A stretch of DNA of 64,000 bases, from NCBI GenBank assembly GCA_964497535.1, contig CAZCCG010000002.1, forward strand, positions 234,972-298,971. Reading direction: 5' to 3'. Source of the DNA: an uncultured Gammaproteobacteria bacterium (GTDB lineage: Bacteria > Patescibacteriota > Microgenomatia > Levybacterales > UBA12049). Shown piece after piece: positions 54,100 through 61,010 of this stretch (position 1 is the stretch's first letter; each line of letters opens with the position of its first letter). The position numbers and the translations under genes are program-made. The notes under the pieces are model-generated. The model was given only the letters and a program-made list of their open reading frames with translations. It had not been told where the DNA came from and ran no database searches.

Positions 54100-54106
54100 A
54101 GGCCAC

Positions 54107-54184
54107 GGCCCCATCGTTCCCGATGGCTTACAGCCATCGAGGATCCTCGATGACAACGATCATCGGGACTAGTGGCCTAGGACA
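54107..54184 (+). other. Partial 5' duplicate of tRNA-Glu (positions 1-11 and 12-27) interrupted by a 51-nt nested-palindrome insert at the D-loop position. Likely pseudo-tRNA or structured RNA.
   Basis: GGCCCCATCGT (54107-54117) and CTAGTGGCCTAGGACA (54169-54184) are identical to the 5' 27 nt of the intact tRNA 321 nt downstream. Insert TCCCGATG...CATCGGGA contains the perfect palindrome ATCGAGGATCCTCGAT, a GGCT-tac-AGCC hairpin and a CCATCG/CGATGG pair. The whole element is additionally closed by AGGCCAC (54100-54106) / GTGGCCT (54172-54178). Confidence 0.5.
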
Positions 54185-54190
54185 AACGGA

Positions 54191-54442
54191 ATGTATACTT
54201 ATATTCTGAAAAGTCATCAGAATGGGAAATATTATATTGGTAGTACTACTGATATAAAAAATAGAGTTAAATCCCATAACAAAGGTTATTCTAAATACAC
54301 TAAAAGCAGAGGCCCATTCGATTTAATTTACAAAGAAGAATATAATACACTATCAGAGGCAAGAAAAAGAGAAAGTTATCTGAAATCACTCAAAAGTAGA
54401 AAAGCACTTGAAAAAATAATTAAAAACGGCCCCATCGTCTAG
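54191..54442 (+). CDS. GIY-YIG nuclease family protein (small, domain-only, 83 aa).
   Basis: YILKSHQNGKYYIGSTTDIKNRVKSHNKG...EARKRESYLKS matches the GIY-(x10)-YIG motif, catalytic Arg and conserved Glu. The last five codons (NGPIV-stop) are templated by nt 1-15 of the tRNA-Glu gene. Confidence 0.75.
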   Translation: MYTYILKSHQNGKYYIGSTTDIKNRVKSHNKGYSKYTKSRGPFDLIYKEEYNTLSEARKRESYLKSLKSRKALEKIIKNGPIV

Positions 54443-54500
54443 TGGCCTAGGACATCAGGTTCTCATCCTGAAAACTTGGATTCGAATTCCAATGGGGTCA
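54428..54500 (+). tRNA. tRNA-Glu (anticodon CUC).
   Basis: Manual cloverleaf: acceptor GGCCCCA/TGGGGTC (one G-U), D-arm, anticodon stem TCAGG/CCTGA with loop TTCTCAT (CTC at 54462-54464, U33, A37), variable loop AAAC, T-arm TTGGA-TTCGAAT-TCCAA, discriminator A. CCA not encoded. Strong similarity to bacterial tRNA-Glu D-arm (TCGTCTAGTGGCCTAGGAC). Confidence 0.85.
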
Positions 54501-54508
54501 CTAAAATT

Positions 54509-55011: not shown

Positions 55012-55296
55012 GTGAAAAAGAAATATACAGTTATTGATTATTTAAAAGAACCACAAACTTTTTATGAAGGGTTTTCCCCTTTTAAAGCTCCTCCCTGGCG
55101 TATAATTCTCTATTGGCTCTTATTTGTATGTGGAATAACTTGGATTATGTTGAATTATGCAGATACATGGATGTTAGACACTTATAAACCTATAATCGTA
55201 TATGGAACAATCTTTATTATTATATATAATGTTCTCCGTTATTTTTATAGAAGACAACAAGTTTTGAGTAATACAAAAAATAAAAAACGATTCTAA
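55012..55296 (+). CDS. Small 2-TM membrane protein (94 aa, GTG start), paralogous to 54509-54781 and divergently oriented.
   Basis: DYLKEPQTFYEGF motif plus two hydrophobic helices. Its stop codon lies inside the 13-mer GATTCTAATACCC that opens direct repeat 1. Confidence 0.5.
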   Translation: MKKKYTVIDYLKEPQTFYEGFSPFKAPPWRIILYWLLFVCGITWIMLNYADTWMLDTYKPIIVYGTIFIIIYNVLRYFYRRQQVLSNTKNKKRF

Positions 55297-55395
55297 TACC
55301 CTATGGTAGTAAGAACTGAAGAAGAACTTGCCTCAGAATAAATTACACTCTTCCAAGCTTCCAAAGAACCCCTTATCTGGTTCCAATTCTGAATA
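55291..55395. repeat. Imperfect direct repeat copy 1 (about 100 bp).
   Basis: Shares GATTCTAATACCC ... ACTGAAGA ... CCAA-GAAC-CC--ATCTGGTTCCAATTC with 55861-55950. Confidence 0.55.
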
Positions 55396-55474
55396 CTAGC
55401 GTCACTGCAAGGCCGAAGATTCGGCCAAGATACATGAAATAATCTCAGGCAATGATCTACTCACACAATGAACG

Positions 55475-55771
55475 TCACGATTCTAGTTCCTGATCGGTAA
55501 GCCCCAGAGCTTTGCCCAAAGCGATCGAGTCAGCCAAAGTTTGCTCAGGAGTACTCTCTTCAATAGCGTTCGTATCAACACCCAGTTTCTTAGCTAATGC
55601 GATCGAGTCAGCAAGCGTTTGTTGTGCTGTTGAAGTCGGTTCTAAATCTCGAGTTGTAGGTAACCCGAGCGTCCCCTCCAATCGTCCGATGTGGTAAACC
55701 AATTGCTGCTGTGTTCGATTCAACGACTCGCCAAGCGGTTGCTCAGGAGTAGATAAAGATCCTTTTTCCAT
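55475..55771 (-). CDS. Small hydrophilic protein (98 aa) containing an internal tandem repeat. Function unknown.
   Basis: Strong SD (AAGGAGGTG) 8 nt upstream of ATG. TTGACT-17-TAATAC promoter-like element upstream. Internal repeat PEQTLADSIALAKKLGVDTNAIEEST / PEQTLADSIALGKALGLTDQELES. G+C visibly higher than neighbours. Confidence 0.6.
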   Translation of the reverse strand: MEKGSLSTPEQPLGESLNRTQQQLVYHIGRLEGTLGLPTTRDLEPTSTAQQTLADSIALAKKLGVDTNAIEESTPEQTLADSIALGKALGLTDQELES

Positions 55772-55860
55772 ACATTATTCACCTCCTTATTCCATTAATA
55801 TCATGAACCATGTTGCTCAAGTATTACATTACTGATAACTGCAAGTCAATAATTGATAAG

Positions 55861-55950
55861 ATTCTAATACCCGTACTGAAGATGAAATAGGTTCAGGTTG
55901 GATAATACTTATTGCTCCAATGAACTCCGAATCTGGTTCCAATTCGAAAG
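55861..55950. repeat. Imperfect direct repeat copy 2 (about 90 bp).
   Basis: See copy 1. Exact 13-mer GATTCTAATACCC and 15-mer ATCTGGTTCCAATTC shared. Confidence 0.55.
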
Positions 55951-55968: not shown

Positions 55969-56688
55969 CTAAAATAGAGTTTGTTTAAACCAATTTACTG
56001 TTGCAGATCTAAACTCTTCTCTCCAAGAATCTTGAGATAAGTCATGAGTTGCTCCTTTTATTTCAATCAATTCTTTTCTCTTCGGATGAACAGGTGCATT
56101 AAGAAATGCATTAATCATTTTAGCAGGGATTATAGAATCTTTCTCCGACTCAATAATTAATATATCTCCAGTAAAATTTACTAGACTTCGGATAGCAGGG
56201 GTATTAGTAATATCCGACATATTATTAAATTTATCTTTTTCTATTTGCATAAGTTGTGTAAGAGTCAAACCCATCATAGAATCAGTGTAAGTTGCAGGGG
56301 CACGAAGAACTAAACTTTTAACTTTCCTCTTGTTGCTTACATATGCTGAAATACCTCCTCCAAAACTAGCACCACACATTCCTATCCTTTCATCATCAAT
56401 AGACTCATTTTTTACTAAATAATCATAAGCTTGCAATCCATCTAAAAAACCGTCGTGGACTTTAAAACTATTCCCTTCCGTATTTGATACAGCATGACCA
56501 CGTAAATTAATAGTCAAAGTAATTATTCCAATTTCTGCTAATCTCTCCCCGAGTGGAATATAGTTCTTTTCACTACTACTGAATCCATGAATTAGAATAA
56601 CGCCTGGATTTTTATGTCTTACTGTTTGAGGCAGAATAAGCGTACCTTGTATAACTTTGCCCTTACTACCAAAATTCACTTTCTGCAT
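55969..56688 (-). CDS. Alpha/beta-fold hydrolase (dienelactone hydrolase / S9 peptidase-like).
   Basis: GVILIHGFSSS, nucleophile elbow GMCGASFGGG (G-x-S-x-G), C-terminal His region KGATHDL. 239 aa. Confidence 0.7.
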   Translation of the reverse strand: MQKVNFGSKGKVIQGTLILPQTVRHKNPGVILIHGFSSSEKNYIPLGERLAEIGIITLTINLRGHAVSNTEGNSFKVHDGFLDGLQAYDYLVKNESIDDERIGMCGASFGGGISAYVSNKRKVKSLVLRAPATYTDSMMGLTLTQLMQIEKDKFNNMSDITNTPAIRSLVNFTGDILIIESEKDSIIPAKMINAFLNAPVHPKRKELIEIKGATHDLSQDSWREEFRSATVNWFKQTLF

Positions 56689-56709
56689 AAATCGATTATA
56701 ACATCTCTT

Positions 56710-56757
56710 TTGACTTCAGTATTATCCTCTAGTATAATCTCCTCCGTACATTGATAG
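56710..56757 (+). promoter_or_regulatory. Sigma70-like promoter A: TTGACT-17-TATAAT followed after 7 nt by the conserved 12-mer GTACATTGATAG.
   Basis: -35 at 56710-56715, -10 at 56733-56738, 12-mer at 56746-56757. Drives the four-gene plus-strand cassette. Confidence 0.6.
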
Positions 56758-56789
56758 GTGCAGAAGAAGTATCCGAAAGGGGAACGGCA

Positions 56790-57212
56790 ATGCAAAAACA
56801 CCGCTGGGATGACACCACAATTGGTACCTACTGGACATGGGAGATGCCAGAGTTAGCTCGTGAGCTTCCAATCCTGCTTCAGAAAGCAGGCCGAGTCGAG
56901 ATTCTTTCAGAACCTGACTTCCTCACGCGAGTTGTTATCAGGGTGCATCTTCATCAACCAGCAAAGGTTATCGATTGGGGGCAAAACTGGGGAGACGGCG
57001 TAGCAATCAACTCCGCCACCTATGCATGTTTTTCCCGTGGCTTCTCGGCCAACATGAAGCGACTACCTCGCGAGGGAGATACAGTCATCGAACTCGATAT
57101 CGAGCTGGAGATGAGGACGTTTAAAGAGGGACAGGAAATCACACTCGATGACATGCGTAAAGCGCTTCATGAATTCGCTGAACAGATAACCAAAACATGG
57201 TACTATCACTAG
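56790..57212 (+). CDS. Hypothetical protein (140 aa), first gene of G+C-rich cassette. Start placed at ATG with SD AAAGGGG (the track's TTG start at 56751 is less likely).
   Basis: MQKHRWDDTTIGTYWTWEMPELAREL... No recognisable motif. About 50% G+C. Confidence 0.55.
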   Translation: MQKHRWDDTTIGTYWTWEMPELARELPILLQKAGRVEILSEPDFLTRVVIRVHLHQPAKVIDWGQNWGDGVAINSATYACFSRGFSANMKRLPREGDTVIELDIELEMRTFKEGQEITLDDMRKALHEFAEQITKTWYYH

Positions 57213-57262
57213 CACTCACGCAGTTCATCACTGCAATGCTAGTAGCTCAGAAAGGGGCAACC

Positions 57263-57658
57263 ATGACTACCGATCCCCCAGTCCCTGAAGGAATGGAATG
57301 GGTACGCAGGTCAACTGCTGTTTATCGTCTGGGAATATCCGAGAGAGCGATATCCCAACGGGTAAAGACGGGAAAACTACTCAAACGTGGTGGTCCTAGA
57401 ACTGGTCAGCCTGCGGAAGTGCTAGTTCCCATCCAGATGCAAGACTCTGTTCTTCAACAGTATAGTAAAGTGCTAGAGCAGGGCATCGAATATGGCAAAC
57501 TTCTGCAACAACGCGACCATTTACTCACTCGTCTAGGAGAAACAGAACGCCGGGCGCAAGATGCAGAAGCCAAACTCAGTCAAGCAATGTCAAAGTTGGC
57601 TCAGTATGAAGTGCTTATGAGTACCATAGCTCAATTGATTCCATCGCACCTACGATGA
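57263..57658 (+). CDS. HTH DNA-binding protein (excisionase/MerR-like N-terminal helix-turn-helix plus C-terminal coiled coil), 131 aa.
   Basis: SD AAAGGGG before ATG. WVRRSTAVYRLGISERAISQRVKTGKL is a typical HTH. C-terminal heptad-rich QQRDHLLTRLGETERRAQDAEAKLSQAMSKLAQYEVL. Confidence 0.55.
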   Translation: MTTDPPVPEGMEWVRRSTAVYRLGISERAISQRVKTGKLLKRGGPRTGQPAEVLVPIQMQDSVLQQYSKVLEQGIEYGKLLQQRDHLLTRLGETERRAQDAEAKLSQAMSKLAQYEVLMSTIAQLIPSHLR

Positions 57659-57669
57659 CTATTCTACTC

Positions 57670-57700
57670 GGGCACCCTTCGGGGTGCCCTCTTTCGTTTA
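57670..57700 (+). terminator. Rho-independent terminator: GGGCACCC-TTCG-GGGTGCCC followed by TCTTTCGTTTA.
   Basis: Perfect 8-bp GC-rich stem with TTCG tetraloop and U-rich tail, 12 nt after the HTH gene stop. Confidence 0.7.
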
Positions 57701-57733
57701 TCCTTCTTCAACCTCTCAAAAGATTCAATTACC

Positions 57734-57781
57734 TTTACTTCTTCCCTACTCTTTCCTATAATGCCATCTGTACATTGATAG
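57734..57781 (+). promoter_or_regulatory. Sigma70-like promoter B: TTTACT-17-TATAAT followed after 7 nt by GTACATTGATAG (identical 12-mer and spacing as promoter A).
   Basis: -35 at 57734-57739, -10 at 57757-57762, 12-mer at 57770-57781. Confidence 0.55.
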
Positions 57782-57866
57782 CGAAAATATACCGCTCTGG
57801 CATTATCTTTATAAGTTTGCTTGTAAAAATGATGCTGGGGCGGCAGCAGAAAGTGAGGAACCCTAT

Positions 57867-58139
57867 ATGGGTCAAGGATATACACCTACCTTGGAAGGAT
57901 GGCCTGAGTGCCTGAGCACAGGAGGGAGTCGAGAAACTCTCTTACGACGGCTTGAGAGCGACAGGCAGCTTTACTGGATACGGCCACACCTGATCCAACG
58001 ATTTGGCAGTCTCGAAGCATCGCTGGACTTTATCACTACTCCCCGCAACGACCTGGATGGAAGGACGCTTTGGCAAGCGTTTGGATCGTTTCGGCCAGGA
58101 GAAGTGTTGGTAGTCCAGGATATCCTCAGGCGTCAGTAG
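57867..58139 (+). CDS. Hypothetical protein (90 aa).
   Basis: SD GAGGAA 8 nt upstream of ATG. MGQGYTPTLEGWPECLSTGG... Same strand and composition as the rest of the cassette. Confidence 0.5.
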   Translation: MGQGYTPTLEGWPECLSTGGSRETLLRRLESDRQLYWIRPHLIQRFGSLEASLDFITTPRNDLDGRTLWQAFGSFRPGEVLVVQDILRRQ

Positions 58140-58199
58140 CGAAATGATTCGTAGGGAAACCGCCTTCTTCCCTGCACATCGCCGAAAGGAATAAGCATC

Positions 58200-58796
58200 A
58201 TGGCCGACGATCAGACTAAGGCACATCAATGCTCTTTGTGCAAAACACCTGAAGATCAGGTAAAACTTATAGCTTGCCCCGAAGGCAGCTACTTCTGCGC
58301 CATCTGCGCTCAAAAATGGGCAGACGCCGCGATGGATTTGATCGGCGAAGACCCAATACAGCTTACAGACGCAGATATCGACGAGATCAGTCTTCGTATG
58401 CTCGCTGGGGAATCTGGCCAACCGCTTGAACTCGATGCACTTGGTATGCCTCGAGGACTACGGATCTCTGAAGATAGCTGGAGGGAAATCAAGCAGCACG
58501 TAAACGAAGTACTAGCAAGGAGTACGCCGATGGAACCGCAGGTATGCAAGTCTTACGAAGAAGCCAATCGGGTCAAAGACCGCCACCTACGAGAGCTCGT
58601 AGTACCTTTGACACTTACCGTGGGCGTATACAGCCGCTCCCGGGAAGAGGGAGACCCCGAACAATGGGTAATCGTAGTAGGACTCCGCAGGGAACCTACA
58701 GACCAAGAGCTGCAAGATCTTCCCATGGAGCTTGAAGGCATCCCTGTGCTGTATGAAAGAGAAGGGAGATCACAAGCAGCAAAGAAATCTGTCTAA
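58200..58796 (+). CDS. Cys-rich zinc-ribbon/zinc-finger protein (198 aa), function unknown.
   Basis: SD AAGGAA before ATG. N-terminal CSLC-x11-C-x6-CAIC cluster (C11, C14, C26, C33, C36). Acidic C-terminal half. Confidence 0.55.
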   Translation: MADDQTKAHQCSLCKTPEDQVKLIACPEGSYFCAICAQKWADAAMDLIGEDPIQLTDADIDEISLRMLAGESGQPLELDALGMPRGLRISEDSWREIKQHVNEVLARSTPMEPQVCKSYEEANRVKDRHLRELVVPLTLTVGVYSRSREEGDPEQWVIVVGLRREPTDQELQDLPMELEGIPVLYEREGRSQAAKKSV

Positions 58797-58816
58797 CTAT
58801 CAACGCAACCTACACC

Positions 58817-58852
58817 GCCCCCGAGGCTTCAGCTGAGGGGGCTTTTTTTATT
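58817..58852 (+). terminator. Rho-independent terminator: GCCCCC-(14 nt loop)-GGGGGC followed by T8.
   Basis: GC stem 58817-58822 / 58837-58842 plus TTTTTTTTAT tail, 20 nt after the zinc-ribbon gene stop. Confidence 0.7.
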
Positions 58853-58877
58853 TACAGATTCAAACTATAAAGCTCTA

Positions 58878-61010
58878 CTATTGATCTGAATTTGAAACTG
58901 GAAGAGTAATGTCTTCTCCAGTTCTTGCCGTATGGCTCACTAAAACCCGAGTGGGAATACCGTCTTTCTTCATCACCATACTTCCTCCATTAGAACCGCT
59001 GAGTTTGGCATCATATTTTTGTTCTATTCCTTCAACAGCATGATATGTCGTGCTGCTATATATTTTGCTACAACATTCATCATAAAAAGTGTTTTTCAGC
59101 GCTCCACTACTGATGCTACTTGCAGGGTCATATATTCTGCTGATTGTTGTGCTCAGTTGTAATCCCGGAAATGTTTGTAGTTTTGCTTTAAGCTCCGGGG
59201 TCAGAGGAAGAAATGTAGTCCCAATTGGTACAAATGTATCGGGTATGACATTTTCAAGATATACATTTTGTAGGTATGAATTTCGTGAATCATTGGTAAT
59301 CCCCAGTATTACTTGTGCAAGTACAGAGAGCATTTCATTCTCTCTTTTCGTATCAATTTTATTGGGATTTATAGAAATGAGATACCCGTTTGTATCCTGG
59401 ACTATTTTTTGCCCTGTAGGAGAATAGAGTGTTCCTCTTTTTCCTACCTGAGAAGTATAGGTAAAAGTAGTACCGGGAGTGAATTTATGCAGTAATAGAT
59501 CCCAATCCCACACAATTTTCCATTGTCCGTTTTCATTGACCAAGTTCATTGTTTTATCTTCTGAAAATGCACCAAGGTCTTGTGTTTTATAGATGACATG
59601 AAACTGTACTGATCCGTGGTTTCCAAAAAGAGGAATGGTTCGCTTTTTTTCAGAAACGGTTATATTTTTTACAGTAGCATTGATCAGTGCATTTTGTGCA
59701 ATTTTTCTAAATTGTTCTTGTGTCAACCCATTTTTGCTTGTCTGGGAAATATCTTCTGCATAGATGTCATGGAAATATTGATGGGAAAAATTATAGTAAT
59801 AATCCTGTATCGTAAATGGCTGGGTCGTTACCAGAAGCCAAGTAGTATAAAACAATCCCCCGCATGCCACAATAACAAAAAGAACTAATCCCACAGGTCG
59901 AAGCAGATACTTTTTAAATGCCTGCGCAAAAAGTAAATAGAGGATTGGAACAAAAAGAATTGTATAGCGGACATAAAAAGGAATATTGGTATAGATAAGA
60001 AGAGTTACTAACAAGAAAACGCATATTCCTTTGAGGAAAATATCTTTCTTTCGAGTTATGAGAGTTTTAACAGCAACACCAATACCTGCTACTGTAACAA
60101 TCGGCAGAAAAATCCACCATTCCCTGATCTTCTGAAAGGCTCCAGTAACAACATCTGGAAAATATCCAATAAGAATAGCATCCCATACAGACAAACGAAA
60201 CAATTGATTCTTGCCGTTGTAGTAAACCGATGCCATGTACTTATGCAGCTTGAGATAGTCCAGGATGGTATGACCCATAGCAAAATATCGAAAGTAAGGA
60301 ATAAATACTCCAACCACAAATGTAGCTAAAAATACTATGATAAAAATAAATCTCTTTTTGTAGAAAAGATAAACCAACTCCAAACAAAGAATTACAGGAA
60401 CCAGAAGCGGCGGCTTTGTTTCTGTAAAAAATCCCAGACTCAATCCGCTGATCCCAATCCATAGATACCTTATTTTGTGATTGGTATCGGTAACTGCATA
60501 GAAAAGAAAAAGAAAATTAATAAGGAGAAAAAGAAGCTGCAACAGATCCAGAGTGGTAGTCGTAAAATGAGTATAAACAAACGGCTCAACTACCAGTAAC
60601 GTTGTAGTCATCAGAGCTATTTTTTTATTTTTTAGTAATGCTTTGGCAAAAAAATAGAATGCTACAATAGTACCTATTCCAGTCAAAAATGCGAAGTAAA
60701 TGGGATTATGCAATAGGATAATACTTATGCCGATTAAATAGATTCCAACAGGAGGTTTATTGGCATTTGTCGTTTCGATACTGTCTCCCTGCATCATGCG
60801 ATATCCAGCATAACTATAAATTCCATCATCACCGATGATGCGTTGGGACAAAGGCAATGTCCACTGAGAATGTTCCATTCTATCTTTCCAATAAGAAACG
60901 TTATACTCCTGCAAAAAAAGATATCGGTTAAAATATAGTAATTGAAGAAATTGAAGAATAATGATTGCGAGGCAAAATAAGAAGAGCCGATTTTTTGTAA
61001 TAAAAGTCAT
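58878..61010 (-). CDS. Large membrane protein (710 aa): N-terminal polytopic GT-C-like domain (GDDGIYSYAGY loop motif) plus C-terminal soluble domain of about 330 aa.
   Basis: Long ORF. About 12 TM in the first 390 aa. IGDDGIYSYAGYRMMQG after TM1 resembles the acidic first-loop motif of GT-C enzymes. Confidence 0.55.
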   Translation of the reverse strand: MTFITKNRLFLFCLAIIILQFLQLLYFNRYLFLQEYNVSYWKDRMEHSQWTLPLSQRIIGDDGIYSYAGYRMMQGDSIETTNANKPPVGIYLIGISIILLHNPIYFAFLTGIGTIVAFYFFAKALLKNKKIALMTTTLLVVEPFVYTHFTTTTLDLLQLLFLLINFLFLFYAVTDTNHKIRYLWIGISGLSLGFFTETKPPLLVPVILCLELVYLFYKKRFIFIIVFLATFVVGVFIPYFRYFAMGHTILDYLKLHKYMASVYYNGKNQLFRLSVWDAILIGYFPDVVTGAFQKIREWWIFLPIVTVAGIGVAVKTLITRKKDIFLKGICVFLLVTLLIYTNIPFYVRYTILFVPILYLLFAQAFKKYLLRPVGLVLFVIVACGGLFYTTWLLVTTQPFTIQDYYYNFSHQYFHDIYAEDISQTSKNGLTQEQFRKIAQNALINATVKNITVSEKKRTIPLFGNHGSVQFHVIYKTQDLGAFSEDKTMNLVNENGQWKIVWDWDLLLHKFTPGTTFTYTSQVGKRGTLYSPTGQKIVQDTNGYLISINPNKIDTKRENEMLSVLAQVILGITNDSRNSYLQNVYLENVIPDTFVPIGTTFLPLTPELKAKLQTFPGLQLSTTISRIYDPASSISSGALKNTFYDECCSKIYSSTTYHAVEGIEQKYDAKLSGSNGGSMVMKKDGIPTRVLVSHTARTGEDITLPVSNSDQ

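Follow-up and report, generated by a model that had tools for sequence, protein, structure and literature searches.

What are four small, G+C-rich genes doing on a G+C-poor chromosome, and do they belong together? The window studied here is a stretch of 64,000 nucleotides from an uncultivated bacterium with a chromosome of about 36% G+C, and the genes sit on a 2.15-kb piece of it that has a hydrolase gene on one side and the gene of a membrane protein on the other. The G+C content of positions 56710 to 58860 is 0.496, versus an average of 0.358 ± 0.018 and a maximum of 0.437 for the other 2150-bp windows (z = 7.6). With moderate confidence, we explain the stretch 56710–58853 as an islet of orphan genes that was acquired horizontally and that, much like a moron, is what remains of an integrative mobile element or a fragment of its cargo. 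We do not regard it as a conserved four-gene system.

All four genes of the islet are small and lie on the plus strand, and they are arranged in two self-contained operons (Table 1). Promoter A is followed by orf140, HTH131 and a terminator, and promoter B by orf90, Zn198 and a terminator, with intergenic gaps of 50 nt and 60 nt inside the units. The four ORFs described in an earlier note are present as claimed, and a Shine-Dalgarno site can be read before each. Five ATG-initiated ORFs of at least 90 aa are observed versus 0.62 expected in shuffles. Homologues confirm that orf140 and Zn198 are genes. HTH131 and orf90 are taken as putative genes only from the length of the ORF, the Shine-Dalgarno site and the place in the operon. 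Codon positions give an indecisive signal for orf90, whose coding status is plausible. HTH131 is alternatively annotated as a protein of 153 aa from a start at 57197 that has no Shine-Dalgarno site.

Table 1. Predicted features of the islet and of the neighbouring cassette (positions in the window; SD, Shine-Dalgarno site).
Feature	Position	Strand	Description
orf98m cassette	55393–55859	−	One-gene unit with foreign composition like that of the islet; has a promoter, SD and terminator of its own
orf98m	55475–55771	−	Cassette gene; G+C 0.48
Promoter A	56710–56738	+	−35 TTGACT 56710–56715, 17-nt spacer, −10 TATAAT 56733–56738; 11/12 match
12-mer, copy A	56746–56757	+	GTACATTGATAG; 7 nt past −10; putative shared operator or mRNA 5′ end
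orf140	56790–57212	+	140 aa; alpha+beta protein of a rare five-member family; SD AAAGGGG 56776–56782
HTH131	57263–57658	+	131 aa; putative N-terminal HTH, C-terminal helical/coiled-coil region; SD AAAGGGG 57251–57257
Terminator A	57670–57699	+	8-bp G+C-rich stem, loop of 4 (hairpin itself 57670–57689), then T-rich tail; −18.6 kcal/mol, fold z = −5.3
Promoter B	57734–57762	+	TTTACT-17-TATAAT; 10/12 match
12-mer, copy B	57770–57781	+	GTACATTGATAG; 7 nt past −10; exact repeat of copy A
Leader hairpin	57792–57843	+	Near-perfect, ~23 pairs, no T-run after; in ~100-nt 5′ leader of unit B
orf90	57867–58139	+	90 aa; orphan ORF; SD GAGGAA 57855–57860
Zn198	58200–58796	+	198 aa; mosaic protein; SD AAGGAA upstream of 58200
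Zn198 zinc finger	58221–58343	+	Residues 8–48; ClpX-type C4
Zn198 acidic linker		+	Residues about 50–107; modelled with low confidence
Zn198 small alpha/beta domain	58521–58787	+	Residues 108–196
Terminator B	58823–58853	+	Hairpin 58823–58845 plus seven-T run; fold z = −2.7

The two units with near-consensus promoters and terminators, as the earlier note had proposed, are borne out, and both terminators are strong; the bracketing itself is a prediction from sequence only. Consensus alone is not evidence for a promoter, since matches of at least 10/12 are no commoner in the window than by chance (36 observed versus 40 ± 7 expected). Promoters A and B gain credibility from where they stand and from an identical 12-mer, GTACATTGATAG, at an identical offset from both −10 boxes. 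Promoter A and the TGnTATAAT that serves the divergent hydrolase gene are arranged back to back, and the first 48 positions of the two promoters are identical at 33, including TTkACTTC and the 12-mer. The repeat was absent from the earlier note and is newly noticed here. The 64 kb contain no exact copy beyond these two, and the sequence is not palindromic. It is probably a shared operator or a shared mRNA 5′ end, and it could work at the RNA level instead. A search of IMG/VR for TATAAT-N7-GTACATTGATAG gave one match, in an AT-rich coding part of a viral contig of 214 kb and without a −35 box, which was judged to be chance. The leader of unit B folds at −36.1 kcal/mol (z = −4.15), and none of 200 shuffles is equally stable. 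Its hairpin has no match in Rfam, and no other Rfam match is found in or around the islet. The end of terminator B lies 25 nt before the stop codon (58878) of the convergent gene for a 710-aa membrane protein.

The proteins resemble little that is known. Searches of Pfam, PHROGs, PADLOC and NCBIfam with all four gave nothing significant, the ClpX zinc finger staying below threshold, which agrees with the earlier impression that they match no known system. HTH131 had been read as an excisionase/MerR-like HTH protein. The HTH part of that reading holds in so far as several weak matches converge on an HTH that spans residues 5–50 or so, and a DNA-binding role is still plausible. The family assignment does not stand, with every match sub-significant at E 0.07–0.25 (KorA 0.12, a PHROG transcriptional regulator 0.072, a small terminase 0.074 and a MerR-like protein 0.25). 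No HTH family profile such as MerR or HTH_17 reaches significance, and NCBIfam and PDB give no match. A search for shared words and close relatives in a database of 5.8 billion proteins found no homologue of HTH131, and its sequence has no relative in IMG/VR. HTH131 and Zn198 show no similarity on comparison. orf90 likewise has no homologue by this kind of search, and it matches nothing in the protein families, PDB, the phage and plasmid records or IMG/VR. Were orf90 a shortened paralogue of orf140, the two units would be a duplication; this reading is rejected by an hhalign probability of 0.4%.

The zinc-ribbon protein with a CxxC...CxxC motif, noted before, is confirmed in Zn198. Its cysteines (C11-x2-C14-x18-C33-x2-C36) have the ClpX spacing CxxC-x18-CxxC, which is also found in the repeats of two other proteins, P0009 and P0015 (PF06689, E 1e-66 and 5e-49). 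Against PF06689 (zf-C4_ClpX) Zn198 scores 20.9 bits, under the Pfam gathering threshold of 27. The zinc-binding domain of ClpX forms dimers and serves as a docking site for adaptors and substrates. Zn198 shares the cysteine spacing of this N-terminal domain (PDB 2ds5), and its own zinc binding, dimerisation and docking of adaptors or substrates are putative. Unlike ClpX, it has no AAA+ module, and its finger is followed by a linker and by a C-terminal domain that is unrelated. A literature search on stand-alone ClpX zinc fingers found nothing useful. Residues 51–93 are repeatedly but weakly similar to He_PIG Ig-like repeats, over the first half of the repeat. Eight repeats match a single stretch of Zn198, which inflates the E-value, and the Pfam He_PIG profile does not match Zn198. 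The small C-terminal domain weakly resembles the pro-regions of S1 proteases (alpha-lytic, PDB 2pro; the N-terminal region of NAL1), with scores typical of generic small alpha/beta folds and no match at sequence level. Unlike in these secreted proteases, no protease domain follows it. The domain is also found as stand-alone proteins of 90–107 aa, and the Zn198 profile has no relative in IMG/VR.

Whether the four genes belong together can be asked of orf140 and Zn198; HTH131 and orf90 have no homologue by the shared-word and close-relative searches, and so co-occurrence cannot be asked for either. The sample is small, with DNA around orf140 relatives, sought by the same two kinds of search, at five loci and around relatives of the Zn198 domains at three. 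Four homologues of orf140 are found in four unrelated contexts, none with any other islet gene, and no HTH131 homologue stands beside them. In L007 the gene after the homologue encodes an unrelated HTH protein, and next comes a large phage-type serine integrase (phrog_95, E 5.6e-50) directly beside tRNA-Pro. The spacer of its promoter is identical to that of promoter A at 10 of 17 positions (p about 0.006). In L004 the homologue adjoins a Bro-N/Ant-like, anti-repressor-like phage protein (phrog_15286, E 8.5e-87), and in L006 it lies amid ParE/CopG and PIN toxin-antitoxin pairs. Homologues of the zinc finger and of the C-terminal domain of Zn198 are likewise separate proteins in unrelated contexts. 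The genes had been suggested to travel as one module. This is not supported: the homologues of orf140 and of the Zn198 domains are dispersed and never co-localised, which is the pattern that the earlier note itself had named as a refutation.

This dispersal weighs against a new four-gene functional system for anti-phage defence, anti-defence or addiction, in which HTH131 would be the regulator and the other three proteins would cooperate. No two of the four genes co-occur elsewhere, and two of them either stand alone among 5.8 billion proteins or were detected nowhere else. No PADLOC-DB v2 family matches any of the four at E ≤ 1, and none contains an enzymatic, toxin or nucleotide-binding domain. 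Such a system is thus improbable, even with a compact one-strand layout, shared promoter and 12-mer control of both units, and foreign composition in its favour. It would also be in keeping with the accessory or toxin-antitoxin-rich surroundings of some orf140 homologues, and with one locus (L015) where a distant tandem ClpX-ZBD protein stands beside TIR/SIR2 and NB-ARC genes.

We consider it unlikely, too, that orf140/HTH131 and orf90/Zn198 are two pairs of the type II toxin-antitoxin kind, each autoregulated from its own promoter. Like such operons, the islet has small two-gene units, one with a putative DNA-binding protein, and an operator-like 12-mer that overlaps the transcription start; the L006 homologue lies within a toxin-antitoxin cluster. 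Unlike them, its genes are separated by wide gaps and do not overlap, they match no toxin or antitoxin family in Pfam, NCBIfam or PADLOC, and no pairing is conserved elsewhere, the homologues in L004 and L005 having no partner gene at all. A supposed likeness of orf90 to the C-domains of Xre/MbcA/ParS (DUF2384) antitoxins is not detected by Pfam, NCBIfam or PDB searches. There is no evidence for the addiction or anti-phage role suggested by the earlier note, given the lack of a PADLOC match and of a toxin or enzymatic domain, and the gaps of 50–60 nt. A more specific reading is distinctly unlikely: a previously undescribed, self-regulated mobile module in which Zn198 would mimic the zinc-binding domain of ClpX and so dock onto or poison the ClpX of the host, or else bring a pro-region-like inhibitor domain to a protease. 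The orf140 family would then represent a new class of mobile accessory protein, and HTH131 and GTACATTGATAG would form a dedicated switch.

The composition of the islet departs from its flanks at all codon positions. The genes might be native and owe this to amino-acid content or high expression rather than to transfer, as the likewise raised GC1 (0.57–0.65) and two other host regions at 61.7–63 kb with a G+C of 0.42–0.44 would allow. We find this very unlikely. GC3 is 0.39–0.52 across the four genes versus 0.31 in the host, and their synonymous codon choice differs from that of 39 host ORFs. The trinucleotide distance to the host is 0.42, far beyond the host range (0.098 ± 0.021). The orf140-family gene exceeds the G+C of its own contig in four of five cases (GC3 0.52–0.65 versus contig G+C 0.36–0.45), being compositionally foreign in three other contigs too. 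A scan of 185,579 species-representative genomes gave no match to the family, and a metagenome scan returned only an already known contig. Foreign composition, claimed earlier and now computed, argues for horizontal acquisition. A chimeric assembly or a contaminant fragment joined into the contig is hardly credible, whatever the sharp compositional borders and metagenomic origin of the sequence may suggest, since three assemblies from three separate sequencing runs are 100% identical over both junctions, and the borders fall neatly between genes, 21 nt from the start of one and 25 nt from the stop of the other.

We return to the acquired islet of orphan genes. The donor would be richer in G+C, and the element a prophage or something similar. 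We infer the mobile-element origin only from the contexts of the four orf140 homologues, because the islet and its proteins have no match among 50,697 phage and 72,556 plasmid records (tblastn/blastn), and the islet has no similarity to IMG/VR contigs; the orf140 family profile has no relative in IMG/VR either. From these contexts, the orf140 family appears to move with integrative elements, and orf140 is best explained as a putative mobile accessory gene. Phage morons, known from lambdoid phage genomics, are autonomous promoter-gene-terminator cassettes of deviant composition between prophage genes. Like them, the islet has its own sigma70-type promoters and intrinsic terminators and a G+C content unlike its flanks, is set precisely in an intergenic gap, and has a cargo from which its carrier draws no obvious benefit. 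The L007 homologue inside an integrase-bearing element adds to this likeness. Unlike morons, the islet has no recognisable prophage around it and no homology to any sequenced phage, and it consists of two tandem units with shared promoter and 12-mer and an internal putative regulator.

A comparison with tRNA-linked islands gives a similar picture. The islet is compositionally foreign, is located downstream of tRNA-Glu at a distance of 2.2 kb, and has a repeat-flanked mini-cassette nearby. Unlike these islands, it is just 2.15 kb long, has no integrase or att-like repeat of a tRNA 3′ end, and is separated from the tRNA by host-like genes. No integrase, transposase, att-like border repeat or phage structural gene is found within 44–64 kb, and no direct or inverted repeat marks the borders. 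No relative of the flanking 710-aa gene, and with it no empty-site genome, was found among the species-representative genomes scanned; the borders are therefore set by composition only. The mini-cassette carries orf98m, which has no homology to the four islet genes, and an imperfect direct repeat, about 105 nt long, brackets the cassette (55289–55392 and 55860–55946). It suggests a second acquisition, on the far side of the host-like hydrolase gene.

We propose HTH131 as a regulator of both promoters, with GTACATTGATAG, placed at about +1 to +12 of both transcripts, as the candidate site. HTH131 would bind there and repress promoters A and B, so that the islet would probably regulate itself and be expressed without need of host signals. 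Zn198 would most likely work by binding other proteins, a host protease or ClpX being possible targets, and not by acting on DNA.

No known system is understood differently from these results, which reveal no new mechanism; they are worth an entry in the catalogue and give a modest lead for experiments. orf140 adds a rare protein family of five members to the catalogue, and Zn198 is a new architecture for a ClpX-type zinc finger outside ClpX. The putative regulator and the exact 12-mer at two promoters make a testable pairing. The islet as a whole is a clean, well-bounded instance of genes gained recently by an uncultivated bacterium of low G+C.

The G+C-rich stretch at 56710-58853, here called the islet, is clearly non-random in composition. 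Its G+C content is 49.6%, against 35.8 ± 1.8% in other 2150-bp windows (maximum 43.7%; z = 7.6), and its trinucleotide distance from the host average is 0.42, compared with 0.098 ± 0.021 for host windows. The G+C shift is present at all codon positions (GC3 0.39-0.52 in the islet genes vs 0.31 in the host), and the synonymous codon choice of these genes fits the host more poorly than that of every neighbouring gene. Calculation thus bears out the foreign G+C reported in the earlier note, codon usage is shifted as well, and the islet is of foreign origin. An assembly artefact at the junctions is ruled out, since contigs assembled independently from three sequencing runs span both borders and are 100% identical to the window.

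ORF analysis, a consensus scan and terminator folding establish, at the level of sequence prediction, that the islet is composed of two autonomous transcription units, as had been proposed: unit A (promoter A, orf140, HTH131, terminator A) and unit B (promoter B, orf90, Zn198, terminator B). The ORFs lie where the earlier note had placed them. Five ATG-started ORFs of at least 90 aa are found in the islet against 0.62 in shuffled sequence. A purine-rich Shine-Dalgarno site can be read directly 5-9 nt before each islet ORF (AAAGGGG twice, GAGGAA, AAGGAA).

Features of the islet, its surroundings and loci with related genes
Feature	Position	Strand	Remark
Promoter A, TTGACT-17-TATAAT	56710-56738	plus	11/12 consensus match
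orf140	56790-57212	plus	ORF
HTH131	57263-57658	plus	ORF
Terminator A, hairpin + T	57670-57689	plus	fold z = -5.3 vs shuffled sequence
Promoter B, TTTACT-17-TATAAT	57734-57762	plus	10/12 consensus match
Unit B leader hairpin	57792-57843	plus	long, stable; z = -4.15
orf90	57867-58139	plus	ORF
Antisense ORF, 159 aa	57942-58421	minus	covers orf90 end, gap and Zn198 start
Zn198	58200-58796	plus	ORF
Terminator B, hairpin + T	58823-58845	plus	fold z = -2.7 vs shuffled sequence
tRNA-Glu 5' part, exact duplication	54105-54501		ACGGCCCCATCGT and CTAGTGGCCTAGGACA
GIY-YIG ORF, 83 aa	54191-54442		Pfam E 3e-17; stop codon within intact tRNA-Glu
Intact tRNA-Glu	54428-54501		
Imperfect direct repeat, ~105 nt	55289-55392 / 55860-55946		~78% identical; brackets orf98m cassette
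orf98m	55475-55771	minus	48% G+C, foreign-looking; across hydrolase gene from islet
alpha/beta-hydrolase gene	55969-56688	minus	34% G+C, host-like
Hydrolase extended -10, TGnTATAAT (TGTTATAAT)	56689-56703	minus	ends 6 nt before ATG
710-aa PMT/PBP_dimer membrane protein gene	58878-61010	minus	stop codon 25 nt beyond terminator B
Conserved box and leader hairpin ahead of orf140 homologues	L004:9860-10003; L005:470-614; L006:80-226		box TTTGCAC...TTGCGGAA
Integrative element end	L007:576-3448		near-consensus promoter, orf140 homologue, 167-aa HTH protein, 552-aa large serine integrase
P0009 locus	L015:6001-9936		P0009 directly upstream of TIR/SIR2-domain protein and NB-ARC/AAA-like protein

The promoter consensus by itself is not distinctive at 10/12 or better: the window has 36 such matches, and a first-order random model expects 40 ± 7. 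Promoters A and B are credible because each lies in an A+T-rich gap immediately ahead of the gene that opens its unit (there are no other such gaps), because both have a 17-nt spacer and a perfect TATAAT, and because the same 12-mer, GTACATTGATAG, begins exactly 7 nt past each -10. Nowhere else in the 64 kb does the 12-mer occur as an exact match, and 33 of the first 48 positions are identical between the two promoter regions. Both units have a common promoter architecture, with the identical 12-mer at about +1 to +12. HTH131 is the proposed repressor, as the only candidate DNA-binding protein of the islet. It would recognise the 12-mer and repress both promoters by occluding the start sites, which would make the islet self-regulated; we offer this scheme as a tentative one. 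Alternatively, the 12-mer could be the common 5' end of the two islet mRNAs.

The proposed repressor HTH131 plausibly carries a helix-turn-helix. Several independent, sub-significant profile matches place it at residues ~5-50 (PHROG transcriptional regulator, E 0.072; small terminase, 0.074; KorA, 0.12; MerR-like, 0.25). Of the excisionase/MerR-like fold suggested earlier, the matches agree on the helix-turn-helix, and the MerR-like match is among the sub-significant ones. The C-terminal half gives weak matches to long helical proteins. No homologue was found by word-indexed search and none in the PDB. A Shine-Dalgarno site precedes the start at 57263 but not that of the longer, 153-aa version found in public records. 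For orf90, no match of any kind was obtained among family profiles, the PDB, defence models, phages, plasmids and IMG/VR. Its frame is not separable from an antisense frame by the codon-position test, and it is marked as a putative gene by its length, its Shine-Dalgarno site and where it lies. The 159-aa antisense ORF is most likely a shadow ORF, as the Zn198 frame is confirmed by homology.

An exhaustive HMMER search reveals that Zn198 is a mosaic protein, in which a ClpX-type zinc finger is fused to a small, independently occurring domain. Residues 8-48 match P0009 and P0015, proteins made up of ClpX-type C4 zinc fingers in tandem, three or four per protein (Pfam zf-C4_ClpX, E 1e-66 and 5e-49), and all three proteins have the ClpX spacing CxxC-x18-CxxC. 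The zinc ribbon noticed earlier is thus a ClpX-type C4 finger; it is the only islet feature assignable to a known family, and its profile score is sub-threshold. The stand-alone proteins P0011, P0012 and P0018 (90-107 aa) share 34-39% identity with residues 108-196, which are modelled as alpha-beta-beta-alpha-beta (mean pLDDT of 10-residue blocks 74-94). Residues 51-93, modelled at low confidence, show repeated but weak alignments to He_PIG Ig-like repeats from giant surface proteins, covering the first half of the repeat. Their significance reflects the number of repeats that match a single stretch of Zn198, and the Pfam He_PIG profile does not match the protein. In ClpX, the zinc-binding domain serves in dimerisation and in the docking of adaptors and substrates. 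By analogy, Zn198, with its free finger fused to a pro-region-like domain, might work by protein-protein contacts and could bind ClpX or a protease; our confidence in this is low. P0009, which has four tandem fingers, lies in a defence-island-like neighbourhood (L015).

orf140 is a real gene. Four homologues are 49-54% identical to it, with 48 invariant columns and striking Trp/Tyr-rich motifs, including TIGTYWxWEMPE, QPAKVIDW, WGDGxAINS and TKTWYYH. The family is very rare: a search of 5.8 billion proteins gave five members, JGI metagenomes yielded a single contig with the gene, and neither 185,579 species-representative genomes nor IMG/VR contained any. The AlphaFold model from five sequences, of reasonable confidence, is an alpha+beta sandwich (pLDDT 77, pTM 0.71), and Pfam matches are weak and below threshold (DUF7700, E 0.0045; Imm1, E 0.02). 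In four of five hosts the gene has a higher G+C than the contig around it (GC3 0.52-0.65 vs contig G+C 0.36-0.45); the exception is L004, where its composition looks native. Ahead of the homologues at L004, L005 and L006 we observed a conserved box together with a leader hairpin, also conserved, that spans ~60 nt with ~23 pairs and shows compensatory changes at four pairs among only three sequences. The hairpin has no Rfam match and might be a cis-regulatory RNA not described before, or else an inverted repeat in the DNA. Box and hairpin are both absent from the orf140 copy of the window.

On the available data, the four genes do not travel together: by tblastn, none of the five loci fetched for the four orf140 homologues encodes a relative of HTH131, orf90 or Zn198. 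These loci represent four distinct contexts. The homologue lies between dnaJ and a Bro-N/anti-repressor-like phage protein (phrog_15286, E 8.5e-87) followed by nusA (L004), between secY and a methyltransferase (L005), among ParE/CopG and PIN toxin-antitoxin pairs (L006), and at the end of an integrative element (L007), whose integrase (Resolvase + Recombinase; phrog_95, E 5.6e-50) overlaps tRNA-Pro(cgg) with its 3' end. The order of orf140 and then an HTH gene recurs once, at L007, with a partner unrelated to HTH131. The L007 promoter spacer is identical to that of promoter A at 10 of 17 positions (p about 0.006), so the orf140 gene and its promoter may have moved together. Among the relatives of the Zn198 C-terminal domain, P0011 stands alone near dnaG/rpoD, and the contig with P0012 is 928 bp long. 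One run series (SRR22387783-SRR22388091) is the source of several of the orf140 and C-domain homologues, which may point to a gene pool shared within one environment.

A divergent hydrolase gene and a convergent gene for a 710-aa membrane protein flank the islet, which takes up the space between them. The hydrolase ATG and the -35 of promoter A are separated by 21 nt, and the two promoters stand back to back; the position of the hydrolase -10 and the lack of a Shine-Dalgarno site suggest a leaderless mRNA. The 710-aa protein is an unusual fusion, with weak Pfam matches to a PMT-type membrane glycosyltransferase region and MecA_N and with a PBP_dimer domain; a pattern scan of species-representative genomes found no relatives. 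The 44-64 kb region encodes glycosyltransferases, polysaccharide-export and PMT_2 proteins, NUDIX, YflT and Lon, and contains no integrase, transposase or phage genes; no repeats were found at the islet borders. A tRNA-Glu lies 2.2 kb upstream of the islet. The upstream copy of its 5' part is split by a 51-nt palindromic insert, followed by the GIY-YIG ORF, which looks like a gene inserted at, or duplicated with, the tRNA-Glu 5' half. Position 54429 is exactly where two independent assemblies break. The orf98m cassette has its own TTGACT-18-AATACT promoter, AAGGAGG Shine-Dalgarno site and terminator, and its flanking repeat includes an exact 15-mer and an exact 13-mer. orf98m has three internal peptide repeats and yielded no homologues or family matches. 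Evidently, the locus has taken up foreign DNA more than once.

In membership tests the islet fell outside known defence systems, toxin-antitoxin modules and conserved multi-gene systems, and the addiction or anti-phage module proposed earlier is not upheld. In its behaviour it resembles phage morons or small genomic islets. It is a horizontally acquired islet of orphan genes, and we lean towards seeing the whole as moron-like, a remnant of an integrative element or its cargo, rather than a dedicated system. A small experiment would be worthwhile on the pairing of promoter and 12-mer, on the orf140 family and on the new architecture of the ClpX finger.
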